Shown: piece by piece, positions 1 through 60,508 of the stretch
Numbering within the stretch: position 1 is the first letter of the stretch
Layout: each line of letters opens with the position of its first letter
Source: Chiloscyllium plagiosum
Lineage: Eukaryota
Assembly (NCBI RefSeq): GCF_004010195.1
Contig: NC_057719.1
Location: 38,043,722 to 38,107,721 of the forward strand
DNA length: 64,000 nucleotides
Reading direction: 5' to 3'
Notes under the pieces: generated by a model
What the model saw: the letters and a program-made list of their open reading frames with translations, nothing else
Database searches by the model: none
Told to the model about the DNA's origin: nothing
Position numbers and translations under genes: made by a program

Positions 1-118
1 TTCTGGATTAGTGGTGCTGGAAAAGCACAGCAGTTCAGGCAGCATCTGAACTGCTGTGCTTTTCCAGCACCACTAATCCAGAATCTGGTTTCCAGCATCT
101 GTAGTCATTGTTTTTACC
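1..118. mobile_element. Fold-back PLE-end element, family A (left edge cut by window)
   Basis: Perfect 38-bp inverted repeat (1-38 / 46-83, loop GCAGCAT), followed by the family terminus TCCAGCATCTGTAGTCATTGTTTTTACC. Confidence 0.8.
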
Positions 119-3464: not shown

Positions 3465-3671
3465 TCGTATGTGGCGCTTAGGCGGTTGGCACAGGATTCC
3501 CATTTCCTGGCTTGTCTTAGCGTCTCTCGCCTGTAGTTGTTCAAAGTCTGTCTGAAGATTTGTAGCTCGGGTGCTCGTTGTTGTGGTTCTGTTCACCGAG
3601 CTGGGAATTTGTGTTGCAGACGTTTCGTCCCCTGTCTAGGTGACATCCTCAGTGCTTGGGAGCCTCCTGTG
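3465..3671 (-). mobile_element. PLE pseudo-LTR fragment (family C) with hammerhead motif
   Basis: Exact 13-bp TSD AATAAAGGAAAGC (3452-3464 / 3672-3684). Minus strand reads GCA-CTGAGGA-TGTC...GAC-GAAACGTC-TGC, then an ORF-start-like NYRRETLRQARKWESCANRL. Confidence 0.8.
3616..3655 (-). ncRNA. Predicted minimal type I hammerhead ribozyme
   Basis: Stem I GCA/UGC, core CUGAGGA, stem II GUC(ACCU-AGAC-AGGG)GAC, GAAA, palindromic ACGU stem III, GUC cleavage triplet. Confidence 0.7.
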
Positions 3672-13882: not shown

Positions 13883-14050
13883 TGTAATCCAAAAAACTAT
13901 GGATGCTAAAAATCTGAAACAAAAATAGAAATTGCTGTAGAAATTCAGCGGGTCTGGTAGCTGCTATGGAGAGAAAGCAGAACTAATATTTCAAGTCCAG
14001 TGACCCTTCTTCAGAACCTGCTGAGTTTCTCTAACAATTCCTGTTTAGGT
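13883..14050 (-). mobile_element. Fold-back PLE-end element, family B, degenerate hammerhead
   Basis: 12-bp TSD TCTTAACAAACT (13871-13882 / 14051-14062). Minus strand reads GTT-CTGAAGA-AGGGTC-ACTG-GACTT-GAAA. Short inverted arm 14016-14050 pairs with 13921-13953. Confidence 0.7.
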
Positions 14051-17689: not shown

Positions 17690-20150
17690 GGAAGGTAAAT
17701 TTTAAAACATATAAAAGCTTACCTTGTGTATAGGTGGAGCACACACTGAGCAGGAGCGACCACGGGACTGCTGGGTAAGAGGGTTTTATATTTGGGTGGT
17801 TGCTTTACCCGAAACTCTACTCGGGTAATGTCTCCCACCCGTCCTCATCCTCTGACCAAAAATAAAGGTTCTGTAAGGTGATTGGTAAGGTGACTGTTTT
17901 TTTTTAGTTTTTCAGTAGTCCCGTTGGGAATTTAGAATTGTGGGAATGGAGGTTAGGGCAGTTGAATATTCCTCCTGCAGAATGTGGGAGATAAGGGTCA
18001 CCAGTCATGTCCTGCTGACTACATCTATGGGAAATGCACCCAACTCCAGCTCCTTGAAAACCATGTTAGGGAACTGGACCTGGAGCTGGATGAACTTCAG
18101 ATCATTTGGGAGGTGGAGGGGGTTATTGAGAGGAGTTACAATGAGGTAGTTGACTTACGGGGGGGGGGGGGGGGACTTACCAGGGGTAAGCCATGGGGTA
18201 CAGGTCTCTGGCACAGAGTTTGTCCCTGTTGCTCAGAAGGGAGGGTGGGGAGAGGAGCAGAGCATTAGACATTGGGGGCTCTATATTAAAAGGGACAGAT
18301 AGGAAGTTCTGTGGGAACGAGAAAGACTCGTATTTGGTGTGTTGCCTCCCAGGTACCAGGGTTCGTGATGTCTCGGATTGTGTTTTTAGGATCCTTGAGG
18401 GGGAGGGAGAACAGCCCCAAGTCATGGTCCCATTTGGCACCAACAACATAAGTAGGAAGAGAGATGGGGATTTAAGGCAGAAATTCAGGAAGCTAGGGTG
18501 GAAGCTTAGAGCTAGAACAAACAGAGTTGTTATCTCTAGTTTGTTGCCTGTGCCACATGCTAGTGAGGTGAGGAATAGGGAGAGAGAGGAGTTGAACACT
18601 TGGCTACAAGGATGGTGCAGGAGGGAGGGTTTTGGATCCCTGGATAATTGGGCCTCTTTCTGGGGTAGGTGGGACCTCTACAAACAGGATGGACTTCATC
18701 TGAACCAGAGAGGTACCAATATTCTGGGAGGGATGCTTGCTAATGCTCTTTGGGTGGATTTAAACATTCACCAGGGGGATGGAAACCTAAACTGTAGTTC
18801 CAGTATATGGGAGGTAGTGAGTAGTGAAGTCAGAATTAAGATTTCAAGATCACAAGAAGGCACCGACAAGCAAGAAGTTAGTCTGAAGTGTGTCAACTTC
18901 AACACCAGGAGCATCCTGGAATAAGGTAGGTGAACAAGCTGCATGGGTTGGTACCTGGGATTTCAATGTTGTGGCCATTTCAGAAATATAGATAGAGCAG
19001 AGACTGGAATGGTTATTGCAGGTTCCAGGATTTAGATGTTTCAGTATGAACAGAGAAAACAGTAAAAGAGGAGGTGGTGTGGCATTGTTAGTCAAGGAGT
19101 ACCCGGTTGCAGAAAGGATGTTTGAGGACCCGTCTACTGAGGTAGTATGGGCTGAGATTAGAAACAGGATAGGAGAGGTTACCCTGTTGAAAGTTTTCTG
19201 AAGGTCGCCAAATAGTTCCAGAGATGTAGAGGATAGGATAGCAAAGATGATCCTCAATAGGAGCAAGACTGACAGGGTAGTTGTGATGGGGGACTTTAAC
19301 GTTCCAAATATTGACTGGGAATACTTTAGGAGAAAGTGAGGACTGCAGATGCTGGAGATCAGAGCTGAAAAATGTGTTGCTGGAAAAGTGCAGCAGGTCA
19401 GGCATCATCCGAGGAGCAGGAGAATTGACGTTTCGGACATAAGCCCTTCTTCAGGAATTCCAAAACGTCGATTCTCCTGCTCCTCGGATGCTGCCTGACC
19501 TGCTGTGCTTTTCCAGCTGGGAATACTTTAGTTCAAATAGTTTAGATGGGTCAGTTTTTGTCCAACGTGTGCAGGAGGGTTTTCTGACACAGTATGTAGA
19601 CAGGCCAACAAGGGGCGATGCCACATTAGGAGTGGTACTGGGATGAACCCGGCGAGATGTTAGATTTGGAGGGAGGTGAGCACTTTGGTTTTGGTGACCA
19701 CAATTCAGTTATTTTACTTTAGTGATGGAAAGGGATAGGTATATACCAAAAGGCAAAAGTTATAGCTGGCGAAATGCAATTACGATGCGGTTAGGCAAGA
19801 TTTAGGATGCATTGGATGGGAAAGGAACCTGCAGGGCACAATTAAAATGTGGAGTTTATTCAAGGACCAGCTATTGCAGGTCCTTGATAAATATGTACCG
19901 GTAAGGCAGGGAGGAAGTTGTTGAGCGCGGGAGCTGTGGTTTACTAAGGAAGTTGAATCTCTTGTCAAGAAGAAGAAGAAGGCTTATGTTAGGATGAGAT
20001 GTGATGGCTCAGTTAGAGCATTTGAGAATTACAAGTTAGTCAGGAAAGACCTAAAGAGAGAGCTAAGAAGAGCCAGGAGGGGACATGAGAAGTCATTGGC
20101 AGATAGGATCAAGGAAAACCCTAAGGCTTTCAATAGGTATTTCAGGAATA
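17690..20150 (+). mobile_element. CR1 5' portion: 5' UTR, ORF1 (Cys-rich + SGNH esterase-like) and ORF2 endonuclease, disrupted
   Basis: SSCRMWE...KCTQLQLLENHVRELDLEL; IGGSILKGTDRKFCG..VCCLPGTRVRDV..GTNN..DGLHLN; APE motifs RGGGVALLVK and VMGDFN.PNIDW. Confidence 0.9.
19329..19516. mobile_element. Fold-back PLE-end element, family A
   Basis: TSD CTGGGAATACTTTA (19315-19328 / 19517-19530); inverted arms around ~19455; minus-strand CTGAAGAAGGGCTTATGTCCGAAACGTC. Confidence 0.88.
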
Positions 20151-24061: not shown

Positions 24062-24445
24062 CTACCTTTCAGATCCTATGAGTTTTGAACCAGTAACTGG
24101 CCCTTCCATTGAAGACGCTGGTGGAAGACTTCAATAGCTGTGGGCCTCCAAGACCCAACTGTAGACGTTTAGCACCTTGGTGTAGACCAAATAATTCCGG
24201 TCCAGCTGGCTATGTGACACCAGTAAGTGCTGTATAAGTTAATTGTTCTGAAAGGTTAATGTTAGAGACTGCTTTAAGCCTCCAACCAATCTGATGTCAT
24301 ACAAGTTTGTGCATAAGACAAAGTATTTGAGAATCTTGAAGAGGATAGGCCTGTCATCCTCATAATTTTATTAACAATGCCTATCTTACTAATGTAATTT
24401 GTATCTGATTACTATCATGTAATAAACTACATTGTGTCTTTTCTT

Positions 24446-24585
24446 GGAGTAGGAGAATCGATGTTTTGGGCATAACCCTTCATCAGGAATGAGTGGGCAT
24501 TCTCGGATGCTGCCTGACCTGCTGTGCTTTTCCAGCATCACACTCTCGACTCTGATCTCCAGCACCTATACTCCTCACTTTCTCC
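24446..24585. mobile_element. PLE-end family A with 5' inversion
   Basis: Inverted hammerhead-containing piece (24446-~24497) joined to a sense 3' piece ending CTCACTTTCTCC. Confidence 0.8.
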
Positions 24586-25074
24586 AAGAGACTCTTCTTG
24601 TCAAAATTTAGTTGTTGGCAATAAACGACCGCAGCTGCAAGCTGCCAGAAGTTGAATCCCAAAATCAAATGTGACAATAGGCAGAATGAACGGTGGGGAC
24701 AGTGAGCATGCAGTCTTCGTGAGAGAACAGCAGGTGTCTGTCAGATGGAGCTGAAGGTTGGTCTTCTGGGAATGTGCCTCTACTTTCATTACTCCAGGTG
24801 AGAAATGTCTGCAAAATCTGTCTCGAGCATTCTAAACATTCTGGTCAGCACATGTGCTGTCATAATGTATCAGAAATCCAAAGTACTATGTGCTGTGAAG
24901 GTCAGTCTAAGAACAATCCAACAGTCACCCCTACATTGCAGGTACGATCTCTATCTTGCTCTGAGTACTAGATGCCAATTAGCTAACAAGCCAGTCAAAA
25001 GGAAATAGGGACAACAGCAGACTCTCTCTCTCGAAATGCAGCCAACCAACCACTGTCAAAATGAAACAAGACAG

Positions 25075-25657: not shown

Positions 25658-27099
25658 GACAATTTTAACTAACTTGCGCAGCCAAAATTCCAAAATTGAT
25701 TGTTCAATTAACAATTTTCCACTAGCCACTCTTTAGTAATGGCCCCGAGATACTGATCCAAATTATTTCATAACATTTATCTATTTTTGTGGTCACTTAT
25801 TCTTTCTAATCTGCACACATGTATGTTGGGTTATTATTTCTTTTTGCATTTTATAACTAATAAACTCAATCTTTTGTTAACTCATTAGATTGGCTCCTTT
25901 TAAAACATAAATTCACTTGGTCTACCTACCTCTGCTGGTATTTTATCAGTGGGAGGGTGTGTGCAAAGACAGACAAAGCTGTCAGGTAAATGCTGGTGGC
26001 TTGGACAAGAGTTTGGAGAGGAGGTTCTTACTGTTTGGTGACTCAGTATCTAACAAAGGGCCTTGACCAGCTGATTGGGGCCCCTTTCCCTGTCTGACTG
26101 GCCCTGGAAAGGCTGCCCCACTTACCTTCCAATCCGTCATTGCCATGGCACCTTGTTGGAGAATGGCTAGAGTCCCAGCAGTGACCATTGCTGTCAGTGG
26201 ACTGGAGAGCTGCTGATCATCTAACTGGCTGGAAGCTCTTGGAAGCAGGACATCATTCACATGAGGACAGAAGTCATGACATCAGACAATCAGTGCCCTG
26301 ATGACCCTTAAATCTAATTGCGGGGCATTAGCTGGTGAGGCTGTTTCACCACCAGCCTTTAAGCCAATTCTTCTTGTACAATCCAGTCCATTTCTTTCTT
26401 GATCATTTTGAATTGAACTACCTTACTGTGTGTTATTGGACTTTAAACATTAACTTTTATGTAACTTCCTGATTTCTATTTATGGGTGAATACGGAGCTC
26501 ATAGTTCTTTATCTGCCATTCATCTGTGTTCAGGCATTTTGTTTTAATAAAGGGAATAACTTAGCTGTTTTCCTCTCTTGCTAGAGTTCTTAAGTTGTAC
26601 TGCTATAAGAAATGAATTGTGGGAGAATATAATTAATTACAATACAGTGAGTGAAAACTTTAAGTAATTGCTGCCTTTTTTGGGGGCTTTGTGAGTGCCG
26701 TTGGATTCCAAATTAGAGTCTGTGGTGCACCAAAAGAATCTTGTGGGAAAATCATGCCAGATGTTATATTGGTGAAGCTGTTAATGTATGTAGTCCAACT
26801 GCCAAAAATATGTGGAGTAGGCAGAACATCTCATTAAACAGCATTCACCAGAAAACCTGTGATACCGTTTTGGATTGCAACATTCCAACTAATGCCCTAT
26901 CCCAGTGTCACATTGAATGCATTAAGCTGCAGGAAGAAACCTCCCACCCACCAAATTACCCCTATTTAAATGGATTGACACCATTTACAAGTTTGTTATT
27001 GGTTGATTTCTTCTGTCTGTTTTTTAAACCTATAAGTGCCTGCTGCTCTCTGTAGTTGTTTTAAGTTGTAAAAGCCTACAGGGAGTGATGTGACAGGTG

Positions 27100-27202
27100 G
27101 GAGAAAGTAAGGACTGCAGATGACTGAAGATCAGGGTTGAGAGTGTGGTGCTGGAAAATCATAGCAGGTCAAGAAGCAGGAGAATCAAATTTCGGGCATA
27201 AG
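27100..27202 (-). mobile_element. PLE-end family A, single decayed arm
   Basis: GGAGAAAGTAAGGACTGCAGATG...TTTCGGGCATAAG. Confidence 0.75.
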
Positions 27203-27903
27203 GATAGGGTCTCAAGGAGTTCTTACTGATTTAAAGCTTCTGCATCAACTCGTTTCTTCCAAACATGGTTACTTAAATAAGGCTTTTGTTTGGAACTCCA
27301 CCTGTTTTGGAGAGTGTACAGATGTCATATAGAGCTGGACCATCTCTTAGAAGAAAGAAAAGGAAGAGAGAAAGGCCTCTTAGCAGGAGGCCATAATTGG
27401 CCAGCTTGTTCAGGGAACAGTGCTCCTCCCTGAATCTCTATGAGGGTCAAAGTTTGAGATGAGTGCTCTTCATAAAGGAAGTCCTCACTGGAACCTGCCA
27501 TCTGCTGCCACAAATGTGACCTCAAAGCAAGAAAAGGGCTACATTGCCAGTGGTTGTGCCGGTGACTATAGAAATAAACGTTTGTCTATCTGTCTCCTTC
27601 CAGGCCGGGCTTCAAGACATTTGCAACAGTTTGTCATCCAATGAGGCTCAGTACTCCAGTGTTTCCAATTGTTTTTCTGTTATGACTCCATTTTAATGTT
27701 ACCCCGTTGGTGTGACTGCAGAGTGAAAATTGGGGTGGGGGGAAGGCCAGGGAGCTTTTGAATGTGATGAGGCTCAAACAGCAGTGATATAAGCACACAA
27801 AAAGAACTATGGTCATTGACAGGCTCTGTTGGTGCCAGTCATGGGCCTCACAGCTCAATAATTTGAGTCATGTCCACAGGAAATAAAATTCCACACATTT
27901 AAA

Positions 27904-28104
27904 GGCGAAAGTGGGTACTGCAGATGCTGGAGATCAGAGTCTAGATTAGAGTAGTGCTGGAAAAGCACAGCAGGTCAGGCAGCATCCGAGGAGAAGGAAA
28001 ATCGATGCTTCGGGCAAAAGCCCTTCATCAGGAATCATTTCTGATTTTCCTGCTCCTCGGATGCTGCCTGATCTGCTGTGCTTTTCCAGCACTAATCGAG
28101 ACTG
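27904..28104. mobile_element. Fold-back PLE-end element, family A
   Basis: 12-bp TSD CACACATTTAAA (27892-27903 / 28105-28116); minus-strand CTGATGAAGGGCTTTTGCCCGAA. Confidence 0.88.
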
Positions 28105-28129
28105 CACACATTTAAACTCAATCCTAGGA

Positions 28130-31385: not shown

Positions 31386-32190
31386 AGTGACATTTTCAAA
31401 TGCCAATAGGTCTGAGTGGATGTCTATGTGGAGGCACAGCCTCAAGGGAATGTTTGTTATTGCCCATTCCTAGTTGCCCCTGAGAAGGCCTTTTTGAACT
31501 CCTGCAGTCCATTTAGCGTAGGTAGATGCAGAACAGTGTTATATTCTGTAAGTTCAACCAGATCCCCCCCTCATCTTTCTACACTTCTTCAAGTATAGCG
31601 CCAGAGTCCTCAAGCATTCCTCATATGTAAAGCCTTTCATTCCTAAGATCATTTTTGTATACCTCCTCTGGACTCACTCCAGAGCCAATACATCCTTCCT
31701 GAGGTGAGGGGCTCAAAATTGCTCACAATATTGAAAATGTGGTCTGACCAGAGCCTTATAAAGCCTCAGAAGTACATCCCTGCTTTTATATTCTAGTTCT
31801 TTTGAGATTGTATTTGCCTTCCTCCTGATTCAACCTGCAAGTTTACCTTAAAACGACTGACCTCATCTTCATTTATGCCAGGTATGTCTCCAAATGGCAG
31901 AGAACTTCCTCCCTGATCACACTGACTTTAGTTTTGCCAAGGTTCCTTGATGTCATACTTGATTAAAGATGGCTTTGACATCAATGACAGTTATTCTCAG
32001 CTTGTCTCTAGAATTCAGCTATTTTGTCCATGTTTGATTCAGGGTTCTAATAACATCAGAAACTGAGTAACCCTGATGCATACTAAGTGTTAGTGGACAG
32101 GTTATAGCAAAGCAGCTGCTGCTTTATAACACTGTTGATTACACCTTCCATCACTTTACTGATGTTCGAGAGTGGACTGATGGGGTGGAT

Positions 32191-32406
32191 CTGGAAAAGC
32201 ACAGCAGGTCAGGCAGCAACCGAGGAGCAGGAGAATTGATGCTTTGGGCAAAAGCCCATCATCAGAAATGCCCGGAAACTCCTGATGAAGGGCTTTTGCC
32301 TGTAACGTCGATTCTCCTGCTCCTTGGATGCTGCCTGATCTGCTGTGCTTTTCCAGCACTACAATCTCAACTCTAATCTCCAGTATCTCTAGTCCTCACG
32401 TTCACC
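32191..32406. mobile_element. Fold-back PLE-end element, family A
   Basis: 14-bp TSD with one mismatch, CTGATGGGG(T/G)GGAT (32177-32190 / 32407-32420); + strand CCTGATGAAGGGCTTTTGCCTGTAACGTC. Confidence 0.85.
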
Positions 32407-33017
32407 CTGATGGGGGGGATTTGTCCTGCTTTTTTAGTGTACAGGGCATACCTGGGCAAATTTCCAAATTGTTGGATAGGTGTCAGCATTGCTGATGTAC
32501 TGGAACAGCTTGACTAGGTAGGAAGGTCTAGAACACAAATCTTCCTCACTAGTTTGGCTGAAGGAAGTCGAGATGGATCATCTATTCTGTACTTATGGCT
32601 GAAGGTTGTTGCAAATGCTTCAACATTATCTTTTGCACTGATATGTTGGGCTCTTTCACCACTAAGGATGGGGATATTTGTGGAGCCTCCTTCTCCAGGG
32701 AGTTGTTTAATTGTTCACTATCATTCATAACTGGATATGGCAGTTCTACCAAGCTTGAATCTGATCCATTGGTTATGGGATTGCTGAGCTATATTCCTTG
32801 CTGTTCATACTGTTTGGTACAAAAGTGATCCGATTTTGTCGGTTCACTGGGGTGACAACTCATTTTTAGATATTGCTAGTGCTGATTGTGAAAAGCCTTT
32901 CTGCACTCTTCAATGAATCAGTGTTGATCCCCGGATTTATGGTAATGGTAGAGTGGGGAATATGCTAGGCCGTGCAGATACAGATTGTGTTGGAATATCG
33001 CAGCCCACAGCTCCTCA

Positions 33018-33392: not shown

Positions 33393-33809
33393 AATGTCAC
33401 ACAACACGATTGAGGGTATTCTCAGTGTGAAGATGGAACTTTGTCTCCACGATGACTGTAAGGTGTTACGGACAATTGCATCTGGGACAGGGAGACTTGT
33501 AAGGATGAAATCAAGTATGATTTTTCCTTCGTGTTGGTTCCCTGACCACCTGCTACAGACCCAGTCCACCCTCTTCATCAGTGCTGAGTCATGCTTGGTG
33601 GTAGACTTCGAAGTCACCCACCCAGAGTATGATCTGGGCCCTTGTGACCAATAGTGCTTCTTCCAAGTGTTGTTCCACATGGAGGATTACTGATTCATCA
33701 ACCAAGGGATGGCTATTATGAATGTAATCAGCAGGAGGTTTTCTTCTCTGTGTTTGACCTGATGCCGTGAGACTTCATGGCAGCCAGAGTCCAGGTTGAG
33801 GACTCTCAG

Positions 33810-34044
33810 GGAGAAAGTGAGGTCTGCAGATGCTGGAGATCAAAGTTGAAACTTTATTGCTGGAACAGCACAGCAGGTCAGGCAGCATCCAGGGAACAGG
33901 AGATTCGACGTTTCGGGCACAGGCCCTTCTTCAGGAATGGCCCTTCTTTGATTCCTGAAGAAGGGCCTGTGCCCGAAACGTCGAATCTCCTGTTCCCTGG
34001 ATGCTGCCTGACCTGCTGTGCTGTTCCAGCAATAAAGTTTCAAC
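33810..34044. mobile_element. Fold-back PLE-end element, family A, perfect 94-bp arms
   Basis: 13-bp TSD TGAGGACTCTCAG (33797-33809 / 34045-34057); arms 33845-33938 and 33951-34044; 12-nt loop. Confidence 0.92.
33951..33986 (+). ncRNA. Predicted minimal type I hammerhead ribozyme (mirror copy on - strand at 33903-33938)
   Basis: AUUC-CUGAAGA-A-GGGC-CUGU-GCCC-GAAA-CGUC^GAAU: stem I AUUC/GAAU, stem II GGGC/GCCC, palindromic ACGU stem III. Confidence 0.75.
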
Positions 34045-34427
34045 TGAGGACTCTCAGTGCAACTCCCTTCCAAGTGTACACCATTGTCTGCCATCCCTGC
34101 TAGGTCTATGCTGCCGATGGGACAGGACTTACCCAGGGATGTTAGTGATGTTGTCTGAGTCATTGTGTTTACAGTATCCCTCTGAGTATTATATTGTCAG
34201 ATGATTGCTAGAATAGTCTGTGAAATAGATTATCCAATTTTTGCAGTTTTCCCCAAATATTAGAAAGGATGACTATGCAGATTAATAAGGCTGAGTTTAC
34301 CAATCTCATTTCTAATACTTTAGCCAAAGCCAGCTGGTCTATCTGGTTTCATTCTCTTTTTCTTTTCTAACAGTTGTATAACTGAATGGTTTGCTAGACC
34401 ATTTCAAAAAGCACTTAAGAATCAACA

Positions 34428-34603: not shown

Positions 34604-35267
34604 ATTTTTAAAATTACAATCAACATTGATTTCATGATCATCCTTATACCTTTGGTTCAATTCTTTAATGAATTTAAATTCCATCACCTACAATGGGGAA
34701 TCTAGATGGGGATCTCCAGAAAGTTGCTTGGGTTACCAGCACACTATTGTCTCCCCTTAGTCAGACTCTAAAAACATTGAAATGTCCAGGCAGCATGAAA
34801 TTGGCAAACTGCCAGCACCACAATCAGCAGCACTGGTCAGTTGCTCATCAAATCCCTATGCCTGTTCTCAGAAGCTATCAAATTTAACCCCCAGTGATTG
34901 TAAAGGATAAGATTTTAACCTGAGGTCAATGGATACATTGTTGGAATGAAATATGGACTATAAAACTTTGAGATTTCAAAACACAAAATCATATTTCATG
35001 AACTGTACAAGAATGTCCCCATATTAAATTAAGTTTATTTGAATAACTGAATCTTGCTGTTAATGGTATGTAGTCTTACAAAACATTAATGTAGTTCTGG
35101 TTCATTTCCTATTCTAATATTGTAAAAGTTGATTGGAGTTTAACCATTACAAAATTATGTTCAATAATGTACTTTTATTGTCAATCATTGCACATCTTTC
35201 CATTTGTTCATACATGGTAAAGTTTTTAATCAGACTCAATGGGCCAATTGACCTTTATCTACACAGT

Positions 35268-35423
35268 GGTAAAAACAATGACTGCAGATGCTGGAAACCA
35301 GATTCTGGATTAGTGGTGCTGGAAAAGCACAGCAATTCAGGCAGCATCCGAGGACAGGCAAAATCGACGTTTCGGGCAAAAACGTCGATTTTGCCTGTCC
35401 TCGGATGCTGCCTGAATTGCTGT
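35268..35423. mobile_element. Fold-back PLE-end element, family A
   Basis: 16-bp TSD CCTTTATCTACACAGT (35252-35267 / 35424-35439); turnaround inside hammerhead stem II (TTTCGGGCAAAAACG). Confidence 0.9.
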
Positions 35424-36659
35424 CCTTTATCTACACAGTAACAATTCTGTAATTCTGTGAACTGGGGCAAAGCCAAAAGTTTATATGTAATAATTTCATG
35501 TCTAGAGAGACCACACGCTTAAAGTATTTATCCAATCTCAATCTTCATATCTTAAAATGGGTATTGATTTATTAAGTGTAGAGAGGAAAAACATTGACAA
35601 GAGGCAAATTTAGATCAATTATCAGAGCTGAGATTATTTTGTTTCAGAAATAAATGTGTACTTGGATAATAGGTAAAGTTCAGTGACTTCAACTTCAGGA
35701 ACAAAATTGTTATAATAAAAACATTAGTAAAAATGCATAAAATAAATATGATCTCGATATAAGGGAGGATAGAGAAACTATGGGTCAAAATGTGACAGTT
35801 AGAATTAAACAGTGAAATCAGATAGAATGGTTTCAACAAAGTGTAATACATACAGGGAAGAGATCACCAGAGAAGACTAAGTAACAGGTAACAAATCGTT
35901 AAGACAACTTATTCTGAAGAATAATTGACTGAAAAGTTTTAGTTAAGACAAACTAAAAAGTTAGGCTGTTGATCCAACTGGTCTTCTCTAACATCACCGA
36001 TGTTGTCTCCACTGATTTAATTGCAGTCATTGATTGTTTTAAAATTTAATGTATCAGCTTTTAGGTTATTCTATTTTAATCAAATCAATATTCACTTTTG
36101 AATTGTGAAATAGAATAATCTGAGTATTAGAATACTAATTAGAGTAATCCTGAAGTATCTTCATATTTGACTTATCCATTTCAGAATCATTCATTTCTAT
36201 CCTTTGTATCAAGGTCTGCTTGGAGATATGCTAGTCTAAATTAGATACCACAAAACATTGAACAAAGAATAATTGATACAATATTCTTTACCTTATTTGT
36301 GAATCTCAGGTGCTCATGGTTAATTATAATAAATGGTATATATTTTAGTTGCATTTGATAAAACAGGCTGGAAATGGTCACAGTGCCATCTCTGAAATAA
36401 GTAAGTATAACAAATTGGATGGTGCAAGTGTGACAATGGCACTATTGCAATTGTTACCGGTTACATTTCCTTTTAAACTACCACATGATATTGATTAAAA
36501 TGTTACTTAAGTATTACAGTGCTATCAAAAAATTAATAAATTGGGACAACAGAACAAATGGGTAATTTGAAAAAAAATGTAATTTGACCAATGTACAGAC
36601 CAAATCAACATTCACTTTTGTCTTGCTAAATAGAGTAATCTTTGTTCCTGAAGGTGTTA

Positions 36660-40074: not shown

Positions 40075-41290
40075 TGCAGAGCAAAAGAATAATACTGTGG
40101 ATGGTGGAAATCTAAAATAAAAACAAAAACAAAACAGAAATACTCAACAGGTCAAGTAGCACACATGGAAAGAAACATAATTCATGTTTCAGGTCAATGG
40201 CCTTTCACCAGAATGGAAGAAGAATAGAAATGGAAGACTTTTAAGCCAGTAGAAAGGGATCAGAGTGAGAAGAATAAAGGGAAGGAAGAACTATGATTTT
40301 TAATCTCTTCTGCCCTTTATTCAATAAAATAGAAGCAAAAGAAAGTGGTAATAGGTATGGTAAAGAAGCAAGAATTTTGCTCAGGTGAGGCAGCAATCGA
40401 TGTATAATTGTCTTCTGAATACAACATAAAGAAACAGAGAAATAAGTCCACAAAAGAAAATGAAATCACAGTAAGTTGGAGGCAAAGATTATGAACTAAA
40501 GTTGTTGAACTCAGTAATGTCTTCAGATGGCAAGATGAAAGATGAGGTACTGTCCTCAAGCTTGCATTAAACTTCGTTGGAACATTGTAAAGGACAACGG
40601 CAGAAAGGTTAGAGTTGGAGAATTCAAATGGAAAGCAGAGGTGACCCTGGGTCATGCCAGTGAACTGATTGGAAGTGATCCACAAAGTGGTCACAAGTAT
40701 GTGTTTGGTTTCCCAATTTAGAGGATACACTTAACTAAATTAAAAGAAGTACAAGTGAACCATTGTTTCACGTGGAAGAGATGCTTTGAGCTTTGGTGCA
40801 AGAATGGACAGGTGTTACATCCTCTGTGCCTGCATGAGCAGGTATTGTAAAAAATATATTCACTACAAACCTATGGACTCTCAGAACTACCTTGACCACA
40901 CTTCCTCACATGCTGTTCCCTGAAAGGATTCCAATCCATTTTCTTAGTTTTGCCATTTCTGTTGCATCTGGTCTGATGGTGCAACATTTGATGGTGTACC
41001 TTATTTCCTCAACCAACAGTTGCCACCCCATATGGTTGACAGGGCCTTCCATCATGTTTCACCTGTTTCATACACTTCTGCTCTCACCTCCTTCTTTCAA
41101 GATTAATAACAGGATAACCCACCATCCTCATCTTTTGCCCCACCATCCTTATCTTCCACCCCACCATCCTCTCCAATTTTTGCCATCTCCAGAGTGATAC
41201 TATCAACAAATACATTTTCCAATACCTCTCATTTCAGCATTCCCAAGGGATCATTCCCTCTGCAAAATTCCTGGTTCACTCTTCAACAGA
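40075..41290. mobile_element. Old PLE with internal inversion: GIY-YIG + 3' end on -, RT thumb/linker on +
   Basis: Minus strand: FHVKQWFTCTSFN...ETKH (GIY-YIG-like) and a family B terminus at 40075-40215. Plus strand from 40861: HYKPMDSQNYLDHTSSH (YKPTD...YL..SSHP-like). Confidence 0.65.
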
Positions 41291-52669: not shown

Positions 52670-54860
52670 ACATTTTTTTTGAGGCAGTAATGAGCAAGTT
52701 AGACAAAGGAGAGCCAGTGGATGTGATCTGTTTGGATCTCCAGAAGGCTTTTGACATTGTGCTACATGTGAAGCTGCTGAATAAGATAAGAACCAATGGT
52801 ATTAAGGGCATGATTCTGGCATGGATAGAGGATTGGCTGAGATTCCCCCCCGACGTGGTCGACGATGCCCTCCACCACATCTCTTCCACTTCCCGATCCT
52901 CCGCCCTTGAACCCCGCCCCTCCAACCGCCACCAGGACAGAACCCCACTGGCCCTCACCTACCACCCCACTAACCCCCATGTACAGCGCATCATCCGCCG
53001 CCATTTCCGCCACCTCCAAACGGACCCCACCACCAAGGATATATTTCCCTCCCCTCCCCTACCAGCATTCCGTAAAGACCACTCCCTCCGTGACTCCCCC
53101 GTCAGANNNNNNNNNNNNNNNNNNNNNNNNNNNNNNNNNNNNNNNNNNNNNNNNNNNNNNNNNNNNNNNNNNNNNNNNNNNNNNNNNNNNNNNNNNNNNN
53201 NNNNNNNNNNNNNNNNNNNNNNNNNNNNNNNNNNNNNNNNNNNNNNNNNNNNNNNNNNNNNNNNNNNNNNNNNNNNNNNNNNNNNNNNNNNNNNNNNNNN
53301 NNNNNNNNNNNNNNNNNNNNNNNNNNNNNNNNNNNNNNNNNNNNNNNNNNNNNNNNNNNNNNNNNNNNNNNNNNNNNNNNNNNNNNNNNNNNNNNNNNNN
53401 NNNNNNNNNNNNNNNNNNNNNNNNNGTCTGACCTATCACCCTCACCTTGTCCTCTTTCCACCTATCACATTTCCGACGCCCCTCCCCCAAGTCCCTCCTC
53501 CCTATCTTTTATCTTAGCCTGCTGGACCAACTTTCCTCATTCCTGAAGAAGGGCTAATGCCCGAAACGTCGATTCTCCTGTTCCCTAGATGCTGCCTGAC
53601 CTGCGCTTTTCCAGCAACACATTTCCATAATAGAATACAGAGTAGGGTAAAGGGATCTTTTTCAGATGGCAGCTGGTGACTAGTGAGGTTTGTAGGGTTG
53701 TTGTTGGGACTTCATTTTATATATTCACAAACTGGATGAAATAACTGAGGGGCATTGTTGCTAAGTTTACAGGTGGATGGAGTGACAGGTCGTGGTGAAT
53801 AAGCAGGAAGGCTACAGAAAGACTTTGATCAGTTAGAAGGGTGGGCAAAGAAGTGACGGAATCTGATATGGGAAAGTGAGATGATTCACGTTTGTAGAAA
53901 GAATAGATGCATAGACTATTTTCTAAATGGGAAAGGTTTCGCACAAGAGGACTTGGGAGCCCTGGTTTAGGATCCTTTTAAGGTTAATGGGGTTAAAGTG
54001 GCAGTTAGGAAGGCAAATGTTAACATTTATTTTGATAATGCTAAAATACAAAAGCAGCCATGTATTGCTAAGTCTATATAAAGCTCTGGTCAGACCGCAT
54101 TTGGAATATTGTGAGCAGTTTTGAGTCCATATCTAAGGAAGGATGTTTTGGCATTGGAGGGGGTCCAGAGGAGGTTTGGAAGAATAATCCCAGGTATGAA
54201 GAGCTTGTCAAATAAGCAGTTGAGGATTCTGGGTAAATATTTAGTAAGAGTTTAGAAAGATGGTGGAATCTCATTGAAACTACAGAATATTCGAGGGCCT
54301 GAGAGTGGACATGGAGAAGATGTTTCCACTAGAGAGACGAGGACCAAGGGAACAGCGCCAGGGTGAAGAGATGAGTAGGAATTTCTTCAGCCAGAGGGAG
54401 TTGAATCATAGAGTCATAGAAATGTACCATAAGGAAACAGACCCTTCAATCCAACTTGTCCATGCCGACTGGCTATCCCAACCCAATCTTGTAGTACCTG
54501 GCCCATATCCCTCCAAACCCTTCCTGTTCATATACTCATCCAGATGCCTTTTAAATGTTGCAATTGTAGTAGCCTCCATCACTTCCTCTGGCAGCTCATT
54601 CCATACACGTACCACTCTGTGTGAAAAAGTGGTCTTTTTTAATATCTTTTCCATCTCATCCTAAACCTATGCCCTCTAGTGGTGGACTCGCGCACCCCAG
54701 GGAAAAGACTTAATCTATTTATCTTATCCACGCCCCTCATGATTTTATAAACCTCTAAGGTCATCCCTCAGCCTCTGCTAGAATCCGTGGAATGTATTGC
54801 TCCAGAGAGGGACATATCAGCCATGATCAAATGGTGGGACAGACTCAATAGGTGGGAAAG
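52670..54860 (+). mobile_element. CR1 RT to 3' end, with nested PLE (52841-53626) and opposite-strand CR1 (54405-54776)
   Basis: LDLQKAFD..WIEDWL before the PLE; the RT continues after 53627 (LVRPHLEYC). Confidence 0.85.
52841..53626 (+). mobile_element. Penelope-like element (Neptune-type RT-to-GIY-YIG linker, gap, 3' UTR with hammerhead)
   Basis: PLALTYHP...IIRRHFRHLQTDP..KDIFPSPPLPAFRKDHSLRD, then ATTCCTGAAGAAGGGCTAATGCCCGAAACGTC at 53539-53570 followed by the family A arm sequence. Confidence 0.85.
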
Positions 54861-59095: not shown

Positions 59096-59915
59096 CAGGG
59101 GAACCTTGATTATTCAAACGAGATGGGTGGGCACTATTTCATTTGGATAATCGATTATTTGGTTAATTGATTAAATGCCTTTCCGTGGGGCTCAGTCTTT
59201 AAAGTCTGCTCCCCATTCAGGAGACTGCAGTAGAACACAGCACGCGGGCTCCCACCCGCCGCACAAACTCCTTCCAACATCACCTGCCCCCCAATCCGTT
59301 CCAACACCACCCCTGGCCCCCCAAACACAAAGCGTGTGAGCTCCTGCCCCCAACACTGCCCCCACCGCACTGCCCATCCCAACCCTGCCCAATACCACCT
59401 CCNNNNNNNNNNNNACCCAATACCACCCCCCCCCCCAAAAAAACCCAGTCCAAAACCGTCACCTGCCCCTTTACTCCATCCAACATTATCGCACCCCCTA
59501 ACCGCACCCAACATCGCGCCTCCGTCTGCCCCGCCCCCTTTCCGGGGCAGCCAACTGTACACCGACAACAAGATTGCTGCTGCAGCAGCTGCCTTTGTGG
59601 GGTAAGTCTCCGAATAACGCGCATGCACACAATGTTTTGCTGCAACCTTTTGACAGGTTCCACGTTTGCCCTGTACAGGACAATGTTGAAGAGATTATCT
59701 GGGGAAGGGGGCGAGTTTAGGGTACACCCCTCCTGTAGAACTCCAGGGGAGGTCTGGGGAGAGAGGGCAGGAGGTCAGTTATTTGGAGACAGTGCCTGTT
59801 TAATCACTGTAAACAAAATACGCGATCACTGTTGGAAACACGTCTTTAATGTTTCTATCAGGACCAAGAGATCTCCTTCGAATAATCAGATTTTCAGATA
59901 ATCGAGGTTCCTCTG
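59096..59915. mobile_element. Non-autonomous Tc1/mariner-superfamily (Tigger/pogo-like) DNA transposon
   Basis: TA|CAGGGGAACCTTGATTAT ... ATAATCGAGGTTCCTCTG|TA: 18-bp imperfect TIR with TA TSD; no transposase ORF. Confidence 0.88.
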
Positions 59916-60307
59916 TATAGTGTGGTGGTCCCACCTGTAGTGGGACATGAACCACAAACTTGGTTGTGGCTACCCTCGTGGGTAATGAACTCTGCATTGT
60001 TGCGTGTCCCAAAGTCTGCTTTGGAGGACATTTATTAAAAGATCTGAGGCCTAATGCTGACTTTGAAGTACTCCCCCACTAGGAGGAAGCAAGCATTGCA
60101 TATTGGCAGACACTGACAATGGATGAACGGACACCACATAACAGTCACCAGGCAGGGATGTTTCCTCCTAGTGTGGGAGCACTTCAGCAGTCAAGGGCAT
60201 TCAGCCTCTGATGTTTGGGTGAGCGCCTTGATTTGATAGCCATGTTTGGTACCCATGAGGACAGTCTCAACTGGGATCTTGGGTTCATGTCACACTACAG
60301 GTGACCC

Positions 60308-60508
60308 CACTACACTATACACTCTCATTCACACATTCCTACACATGGACGCATACTTTCTCACATAAACACACCTTGACATGGATCCTCTTTCATACAC
60401 GCACTCTCACTCTCACTCTCACTTTCATATTTGTTTACTCCATCACACACACTCACTCCCTCCCAAGTGTGCGCCACACTCGTACTCTCTCCTGCACGTG
60501 CGCACACA
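60308..60508 (+). repeat. Degenerate (CA)/(CT) microsatellite within the PLE 3' UTR
   Basis: CACA/CTCA-rich tract; mirror (TG)n remnant at 59046-59090. Confidence 0.8.

Follow-up and report, generated by a model that had tools for sequence, protein, structure and literature searches.

Palindromic stubs of a Penelope-like element in a 64-kb stretch of Chiloscyllium plagiosum DNA: probable formation at each insertion and a case for priming from both target ends

The stretch of Chiloscyllium plagiosum DNA analyzed here (64,000 nucleotides, referred to as the window) contains at 35252..35439 a short palindromic insertion that is a real feature, namely a stub of the 3' end of a Penelope-like element (PLE). 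The insert is 156 bp long (35268-35423) and lies within an exact 16-bp direct repeat, its target-site duplication (TSD). Together our results lead to the conclusion that palindromes of this family were very probably formed anew at each insertion, as the original prediction held, rather than amplified from a palindromic master. Regarding the route by which the inverted arm arises, we favor a reaction in which both target ends prime on the RNA and the two cDNAs are then joined head to head, to which we give a probability of about 0.55. The original prediction had instead proposed that the nascent cDNA folds back and recopies itself; we do not favor this mechanism, as the short arm reaches outside the first arm in two copies, 24446 and copy 1.

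A Penelope-like element stub and its relatives

Arm positions are given in element numbering, where +1 is the first base of hammerhead helix I, C3 of the core is +5, the predicted ribozyme cut falls after +32 and the terminus is +129. The features are collected in Table 1. The tail arm of copy 35268 would start at +17 instead of +19 if the shared AA were counted, and its terminus is homologous to a sharp end in sequencing reads at 33810. Aligned to each other, the two arms show 0 mismatches in 44 positions. The short arm holds just the 3' half of the hammerhead core and the first half is absent from both arms, so that this copy has no complete ribozyme. Positions 35380-35381 possibly represent a 2-nt microhomology at the turn, an assignment that presupposes the four-T stem II loop of copies 27904 and 32191. 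Taken alone, this locus is compatible with both two-ended priming and fold-back and does not distinguish them.

Table 1. Features of the 35252..35439 locus and of the family copies in the window; inner ends are given as tail arm/short arm in element numbering
Feature	Position	Strand	Inner ends	Description
Left TSD, 16 bp	35252..35267	+		Exact repeat of 35424-35439
Tail-bearing arm, 112 nt	35268..35381	-		PLE 3' end, antisense; +19 to terminus +129
Tail	35268-35301			First 34 nt of the tail-bearing arm
Loop, 7 nt	35373..35379			Part of the tail-bearing arm
Short inverted arm, 44 nt	35380..35423	+		Tail-less; +26 to +69
Right TSD	35424..35439	+		Exact repeat of the left TSD
Copy 35268, both arms	35268..35423		+19/+26
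Copy 1	1..118		+58/+51	Shares the subfamily of 35268; arm with the terminus 46-118, +58 to +129
Copy 1, other arm	1-45			+51 to +95 or beyond, truncated at the window edge; the loop belongs to this arm
Copy 19329	19315..19531		+1/+22	15-bp TSD; tail arm reaches +1, short arm spans +22 to +80
Copy 24446	24432..24600		+46/about -4	Inverted but not palindromic; inverted arm spans about -4 to +46, tail arm spans +46 to +129
Copy 27099	27099..27202	-		One arm, from +16 to the terminus; inverted partner absent, TSD search negative
Copy 27904	27892..28116		+1/+33	12-bp TSD; tail arm reaches +1, short arm spans +33 to about +92-95
Copy 32191	32177..32420		+3/+1	14-bp TSD with 1 mismatch; tail arm from +3, short arm spans +1 to +79
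Copy 33810	33797..34057		+1/+1	13-bp TSD; both arms to +1, short arm to the tail boundary (+94)
Longer PLE fragment	52843..53622	+		Coding piece, N gap, 3' non-coding part, hammerhead end

Judged from its sequence, the arm is the end of an endonuclease-bearing PLE, with a reverse transcriptase (RT) and, at the C-terminus, a GIY-YIG domain, although the link would run over a gap of Ns. Within the longer fragment, 52843-53094 codes for the linker between RT and endonuclease and matches protein P0001, named by its source as from Chiloscyllium punctatum, at 81% over 84 aa. This protein has RT motifs recognizable by eye, a cysteine pair in its linker and a weak GIY-YIG match (E 0.0046, below Pfam's cut-off). 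The N gap occupies 53107-53425 and the family's hammerhead end lies beyond it (53540-53622); we infer that coding piece and hammerhead end belong together across the gap. Compared by eye with the reverse complement of 53500-53543, the consensus of the reads behind 33939 looks similar. An older PLE reverse-transcriptase fragment, 38% to P0001, is found at 40858-41085.

A motif search identified a minimal type I hammerhead with a palindromic stem III in the family arm, a form described for metazoan PLEs in the accessible part of PMC4209133. Complete cores, for which cleavage is predicted, are present at 33934 (minus), 33955 (plus), 53543 (plus) and 19454 (minus). An Rfam scan returned no hammerhead match at E up to 1, and its miRNA-hairpin matches, far under the gathering scores, were rejected as matches of shape. 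Folded as RNA or as DNA, the arm is nothing special (z -0.38 and -0.44). Further copies with flanks numbered 0 in viral contigs and 0 in prokaryote genomes. Three metagenome matches (L001-L003, 401-423) are unrelated, each being a 23-nt chance match to the motif in bacterial-looking coding sequence.

Other inverted or hammerhead-bearing structures occur in the window. A second, older hammerhead family of like layout lies at 13918-14050 (motif at 14014, minus strand), with a long arm reaching the hammerhead 5' edge and a short inverted one, ~30 nt in length, that derives from close to the terminus; a search for its TSD found none. A stub of a third hammerhead family is located at 3560-3670 (motif 3652, minus strand) amid LINE fragments. 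At 59914-60321 there is a decayed inverted repeat of about 410 bp, with arm pieces 79-88% complementary, in which searches for a TSD and a hammerhead motif found neither.

BLAST of five arms against the 64-kb window identified nine family copies. Seven of these (1, 19329, 24446, 27904, 32191, 33810 and 35268) carry an inverted second piece, that is, the head-to-head, 5'-truncated copy seen in insertions of endonuclease-bearing (EN+) PLEs, and two (27099 and 53538) lack an inverted partner. All family copies are single or head to head and none is head to tail; likewise, no partial tandem forming a direct pseudo-LTR was found in the 64-kb window. A few contig joints running from 33938/33939 back to 33810-33812 (X1, X5) suggest that head-to-tail tandems of this 129-nt unit may exist elsewhere in the genome.

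Clear TSDs of 12-16 bp flank five of the eight loci searched. They are exact at 35268 (16 bp), 19329 (15), 33810 (13) and 27904 (12), and 14 bp with one mismatch at 32191; by comparison, an exact repeat of at least 12 was found in 3 of 5000 random zone pairs. Copy 24446 has a probable, decayed 15-bp TSD (10/15 matching, which 1.5% of 20,000 random pairs also attained). The search found no TSD at 27099 or 53538, and copy 1, truncated by the window edge, was beyond its reach. The boundaries of 19329 are confirmed by its host frame, which reads open across the site once the insert and one TSD are removed. From the appearance of its motifs, we take this frame to be LINE endonuclease-like. A 244-aa frame at 18190-18921, with a GDSL-like esterase domain above Pfam's cut-off, is probably the first ORF of the LINE hosting copy 19329. 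Copy 33810 bears two complete minimal hammerhead motifs. Its short arm and that of 27904 end ~34 nt before the terminus; thus the tail of 30-40 bp is one-sided.

Probable formation at each insertion

The centers of the palindromes were claimed to differ between copies, and they do: judged by inner-end coordinates, all seven in the window are distinct (Table 1). This includes the siblings 1 and 35268, whose tail arms differ at only 2 of 73 positions and whose centers and ends are nevertheless unrelated.

Reads provided a second line of evidence. Reads were aligned to one arm (33790-33950) using two raw runs, X20 and X21 (about 4% of each), together with contigs of X1 and X5; runs X14, X23 and X24, with small word shares, were left out. 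The raw runs yielded 143,462 and 138,712 family reads. Mid-arm depth was near 110,000 in 1,934 Mb; for an assumed genome size of 3-5 Gb, this would correspond to about 10^5 copies of the arm. Two organisms, B and C, contain 22-32% of the sequence words of the neighboring stretch. The sharp end at 33810, the sense 3' terminus, is marked by 27,453 and 27,434 loose ends. On the other side, 10,756 and 21,843 loose ends lie behind 33938 and 33939, where the consensus runs on into upstream element sequence. A second class of ends, tail-less and near the tail boundary, comprises 8,438 and 7,981 loose ends before 33847; its end-class agreement (0.39 and 0.38) is near the 0.35 of the true terminus.

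No joint dominates these reads. In total 601 read joints were found, and the best of the 15 listed is carried by 60 of the 143,462 X20 reads. Each of the 14 strand-switch joints listed falls on one side within 33935-33939, a figure inflated by the end of the reference, and in 5 of these 14 (133 of 414 X20 reads) both arms reach 33933-33939. Joint coordinates are biased by mismatches to the reference (33843, 33904, 33920, 33922) and by its end at 33939. A class of reads at 33903 pools several positions through a reference mismatch and was therefore rejected as a peak at the cut site. Joints from 33842/33851 to 33937/8 were likewise discarded as proof against fold-back, since reads of 150 nt miss the far end of a long arm. 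Formation at each insertion is thus well supported, given distinct centers even between siblings and no joint in more than 60 reads among the 15 listed of 601.

It is improbable that a few palindromic masters were amplified, or that symmetric palindromes were laid down, and that centers and ends were later diversified by deletion. Some joints do recur, up to 60 reads from 42 starts among the 15 of 601 listed, and there is one X1 contig at depth 47.9 and, in X5, a depth of 286 over 4 contigs. Reads may also understate such masters: hairpin-bearing fragments are possibly under-read in PCR libraries (PMC5932611, in its available text) and centers more than about 40 nt upstream of +1 are invisible as joints. 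However, the best listed joint has 60 reads while the terminus has 27,453, and those joints that recur are spread over 6-8 low-depth contigs, whereas family contigs total millions. Moreover, siblings with flawless arms differ in their centers, and the inserts at four centers are unlike the products of deletion.

The arms themselves are less informative in this respect. The variant strings said to be common to both arms of 35268, 33810 and copy 1 are indeed present, but they are mostly subfamily markers recurring in other window copies rather than private to one copy. Such recurrence was observed for 7 of 7 arm-shared non-majority bases in copy 1, 12 of 16 in 33810 and 3 of 7 in 35268. Of the other four in 35268, three stem from a single small shifted segment that lies outside the cover of its sibling copy 1, and the fourth, unlike copy 1, may be private. 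At 10 marker positions of 33810, 15-44% of X20 reads show none of the alternative letters listed, so that at most this proportion has the base of 33810. Reads at least 99% like the 33810 arm number 9,899 among the 143,462 of X20. Copy 33810 is a member of a young subfamily.

It was further claimed that arms resemble each other more than they resemble other copies. This was true for three of the six palindromes, the young ones that had been cited (0 mismatches in 94 at 33810 and in 38 at copy 1, besides 35268), and untrue for the other three: 19329 (5/59 against its own arm, 0/35 against another copy), 27904 (3/55 and 1/36) and 32191, the oldest palindrome (10/75 and 7/79). In these three older palindromes we counted 18 arm-only differences against 1 shared base unseen in other copies. 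The arms are identical at birth, a result of their common template, and later decay separately, with no sign of gene conversion. Identical arms are expected under every model with a single template, so private variants do not establish an origin at each insertion; such arms fit that origin and a master alike, and it is the junctions that separate the two.

The same counts make it very unlikely that arm identity was created or kept after insertion by gene conversion, or that it reflects collapse of the arms in assembly. Arms are flawless in three copies and no listed read piece spans the palindromic loci, as either process would allow. However, the 18 differences against 1 argue against ongoing homogenization, flawless arms accompany flawless TSDs, 33810 belongs to a young subfamily and strand-switch joints occur in two raw-read runs as well as in contigs of two organisms.

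Turns, arm ends and the proposed reaction

While the centers differ, the turns are less scattered than had been claimed: of 14 inner ends, 5 are at +1 and 7 fall in the range from about -4 to +3 (the -4 at 24446 is a manual reading; a script gave -6 for the segment as cut). Against a uniform null picked post hoc, the pile-up at +1 has P about 0.009. The ribozyme cut site was rejected as a preferred turn, with only 1 of 14 arm ends there (+33) and the 5' edge of helix I preferred instead. The cDNA therefore usually passes an uncut ribozyme. The +1 position may be the start of the RNA, or alternatively an RT stop at the helix; the bases around it resemble an initiator consensus. An extra single base beside +1 at 33810 (33950) and 27904 (28036) would fit a reverse-transcribed RNA cap, a lead seen at 2 of 5 arm ends (P 0.37).

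Microhomology had been suggested as a check at the turns, and it never exceeds 2 nt in the seven window copies. The turn is blunt at 19329 and joined on 1-2 nt at copy 1 and 35268, while the other four are filled with 6-12 nt. A template for the insert is demonstrable at 33810 alone, where the 12-nt center contains a 10-nt duplication of 33922-33931 (score met by 0/300 shuffles). Elsewhere shuffles reached the score in 46/300 (27904), 28/300 (24446) and 247/300 (32191) cases. The center of 27904 (28036-28045) allows two readings, neither of them significant (46/300): the element's first 9 nt may be followed by a jump across the core at a 3-nt repeat, or copying may have resumed precisely at the predicted cut.

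The outer ends of the short arms lie at +94, +92-95, +80, +79, +69 and +46, and in copy 1 at +95 or beyond. Four of the six are off the tail boundary, and two coincident pairs occur among the six, +94 with +92-95 at that boundary and +80 with +79 (P 0.03-0.09). Microhomology to the primer is 0-2 nt at five outer ends, with an imperfect 4-nt match at 35268, by eye.

These ends bear directly on fold-back. In that model the cDNA made first, with its anchor at the terminus, bends back on itself close to the ribozyme, copies its own sequence and then transfers to the other target end. Such a reaction predicts that the inverted arm never holds sequence absent from the tail arm, yet this was seen in two of seven copies. 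At 24446 the arms (about -4 to +46 and +46 to +129) abut within 1 nt, in the geometry of L1 twin priming; chance would give this at about 2% per locus, or 13% over six. In copy 1, the arm opposite the terminus-bearing arm extends 7 nt further 5'. If the hidden end of that arm is tail-less, neither arm contains the other; if it is tailed, recopying had to stop precisely at the terminus. Containment at 32191 is marginal, failing by 2 nt.

Containment does hold at 19329, 27904, 33810 and 35268, and fold-back finds additional support in the 7-nt tail-arm loop and possible 2-nt pairing of 35268, in the local re-priming at the 33810 center and in the self-priming proposed for PLE palindromes in the available part of PMC3846280. 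However, 24446 and copy 1 are impossible under fold-back without later deletions, no turn has microhomology of 3 nt or more, and at 33810 we saw by eye no base pair on hand to prime it at +1. Nor does fold-back predict outer ends at the tail boundary, where reverse transcription starts in the anole element (accessible text of PMC11167929). We therefore regard fold-back as unlikely to be the general route, although it may well operate in a minority of events, and both reactions may occur.

A further proposal, self-priming on an antisense transcript that yields the head-to-head arrangement (Arkhipova et al. 2013), has been published for head-to-head palindromes and intron retention (PMC3846280, as far as its available text goes). 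For the stubs studied here we consider it quite improbable. The sharp end corresponds to the sense 3' terminus, and the anole PLE uses sense RNA in vitro, with start sites that match genomic ends, according to the accessible text of PMC11167929.

We thus return to priming from both target ends, which explains all seven copies and the tail-less outer ends, and which matches the anole PLE in vitro. In the proposed model, the stubs would be one-step, very short insertions made by an endonuclease-bearing PLE from a hammerhead-bearing RNA end. The RT-endonuclease would nick both target strands 12-16 bp apart; the TSDs are observed, and the nicking is modeled on the anole PLE in vitro. One target end would prime reverse transcription at the fixed terminus, +129, itself an observed end. 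The other would prime at a more internal site, commonly the tail boundary near +95 but in some copies +80, +69 or +46, all of them observed short-arm ends. Both cDNAs would head toward the RNA 5' side; the observed stops often lie at the 5' edge of helix I and sometimes earlier. The cDNA ends are joined head to head, as the centers show, either blunt, on 1-2 nt or with a short insert, and the second strands would then be filled in. Overlapping arms would require double copying, whether through strand displacement along one RNA, on two repeats within a tandem transcript or on two RNAs of a dimer.

The sample behind this mechanism is seven dissected loci, among which 24446 is old with an imperfect TSD and copy 1 has its other end outside the window. 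Three of the seven, 35268, 19329 and 27904, agree in full with fold-back. Palindromes are prone to central deletion, and later central deletions that shift the loop to the other arm could mimic the failures of containment. The overlap seen in six of seven copies also departs from classical twin priming, which yields non-overlapping segments.

The stubs are very numerous and small, with both arms, both junctions and the TSD fitting one read. More broadly, we suggest tentatively, at slightly under even odds, that PLEs routinely integrate by double target-primed reverse transcription of uncut RNA from two start sites. If so, one reaction would explain the PLE signature of an inverted terminal repeat with a one-sided tail, and its products would be preserved at base resolution in about 10^5 shark stubs. 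Nothing points to a host function. Our literature search, with most subscription journals outside its coverage, found no publication on two-ended priming in PLEs or on these shark stubs.

Comparison with known systems

The architecture is ordinary for PLEs. As described in the accessible parts of PMC3846280, PMC8557442 and PMC8969392, an inverted 5'-truncated copy, a one-sided tail and a TSD form the standard PLE layout. In Drosophila virilis Penelope, inverted repeats vary in size between copies (available text of PMC2377424), and Craig 2021 (PMC8557442), in the part available, states that the origin of inverted and tandem PLE ends is unresolved. Like the EN+ PLEs of PMC3846280, PMC8557442 and PMC2377424, as far as those texts were accessible, the shark stubs have a head-to-head inverted copy, a variable inverted part, a TSD round the unit, a hammerhead in the terminal repeat and a tail at one end (34 nt here compared with 31 bp and 34 bp). 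In contrast to the EN+ PLE insertions in these accessible texts, the whole insertion here is 140-235 bp with no coding part, arm copies number an estimated 10^5, half of the inner ends lie at the 5' edge of helix I, and TSDs are 12-16 bp rather than the 8-10 bp of rotifer examples.

Similar to metazoan PLE hammerheads (PMC4209133) and non-LTR retrozymes (bioRxiv 10.64898/2026.07.22.740005), in the available portions of both, the family has the core and a loop-less palindromic stem III. Retrozymes, as described there, form head-to-tail tandem arrays, whereas the shark stubs are head to head and several, such as 35268 and copy 1, lack a complete core.

The closest biochemical parallel is the anole PLE, PAc (Frangieh 2024, PMC11167929). 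In the accessible text, its protein cuts and extends both target strands, starts at two RNA sites bounding the tail and uses uncleaved RNA, and a dimer is predicted. The two tail-bounding start sites, the two-strand extension and the uncut RNA match the ends observed here. PAc is a Poseidon-clade element, whereas the shark element is placed only as a PLE. The available main and supplementary text of that study does not link two-strand extension to inverted insertions, although its supplementary figures may bear on this point.

L1 twin priming is established (PMC2912911 and bioRxiv 10.1101/2024.12.14.628481, in the parts accessible). As in that reaction, according to these sources, both target ends would prime, two cDNAs would be joined and an inverted segment lies within one TSD. 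The classical geometry, with segments that abut and do not overlap, is found in one of seven copies, 24446. Unlike L1 in the same accessible texts, the other six overlap into palindromes, poly(A) is absent and the second primer has preferred sites. Taken together, these comparisons indicate that stub formation works like twin priming, though not in its classical form.
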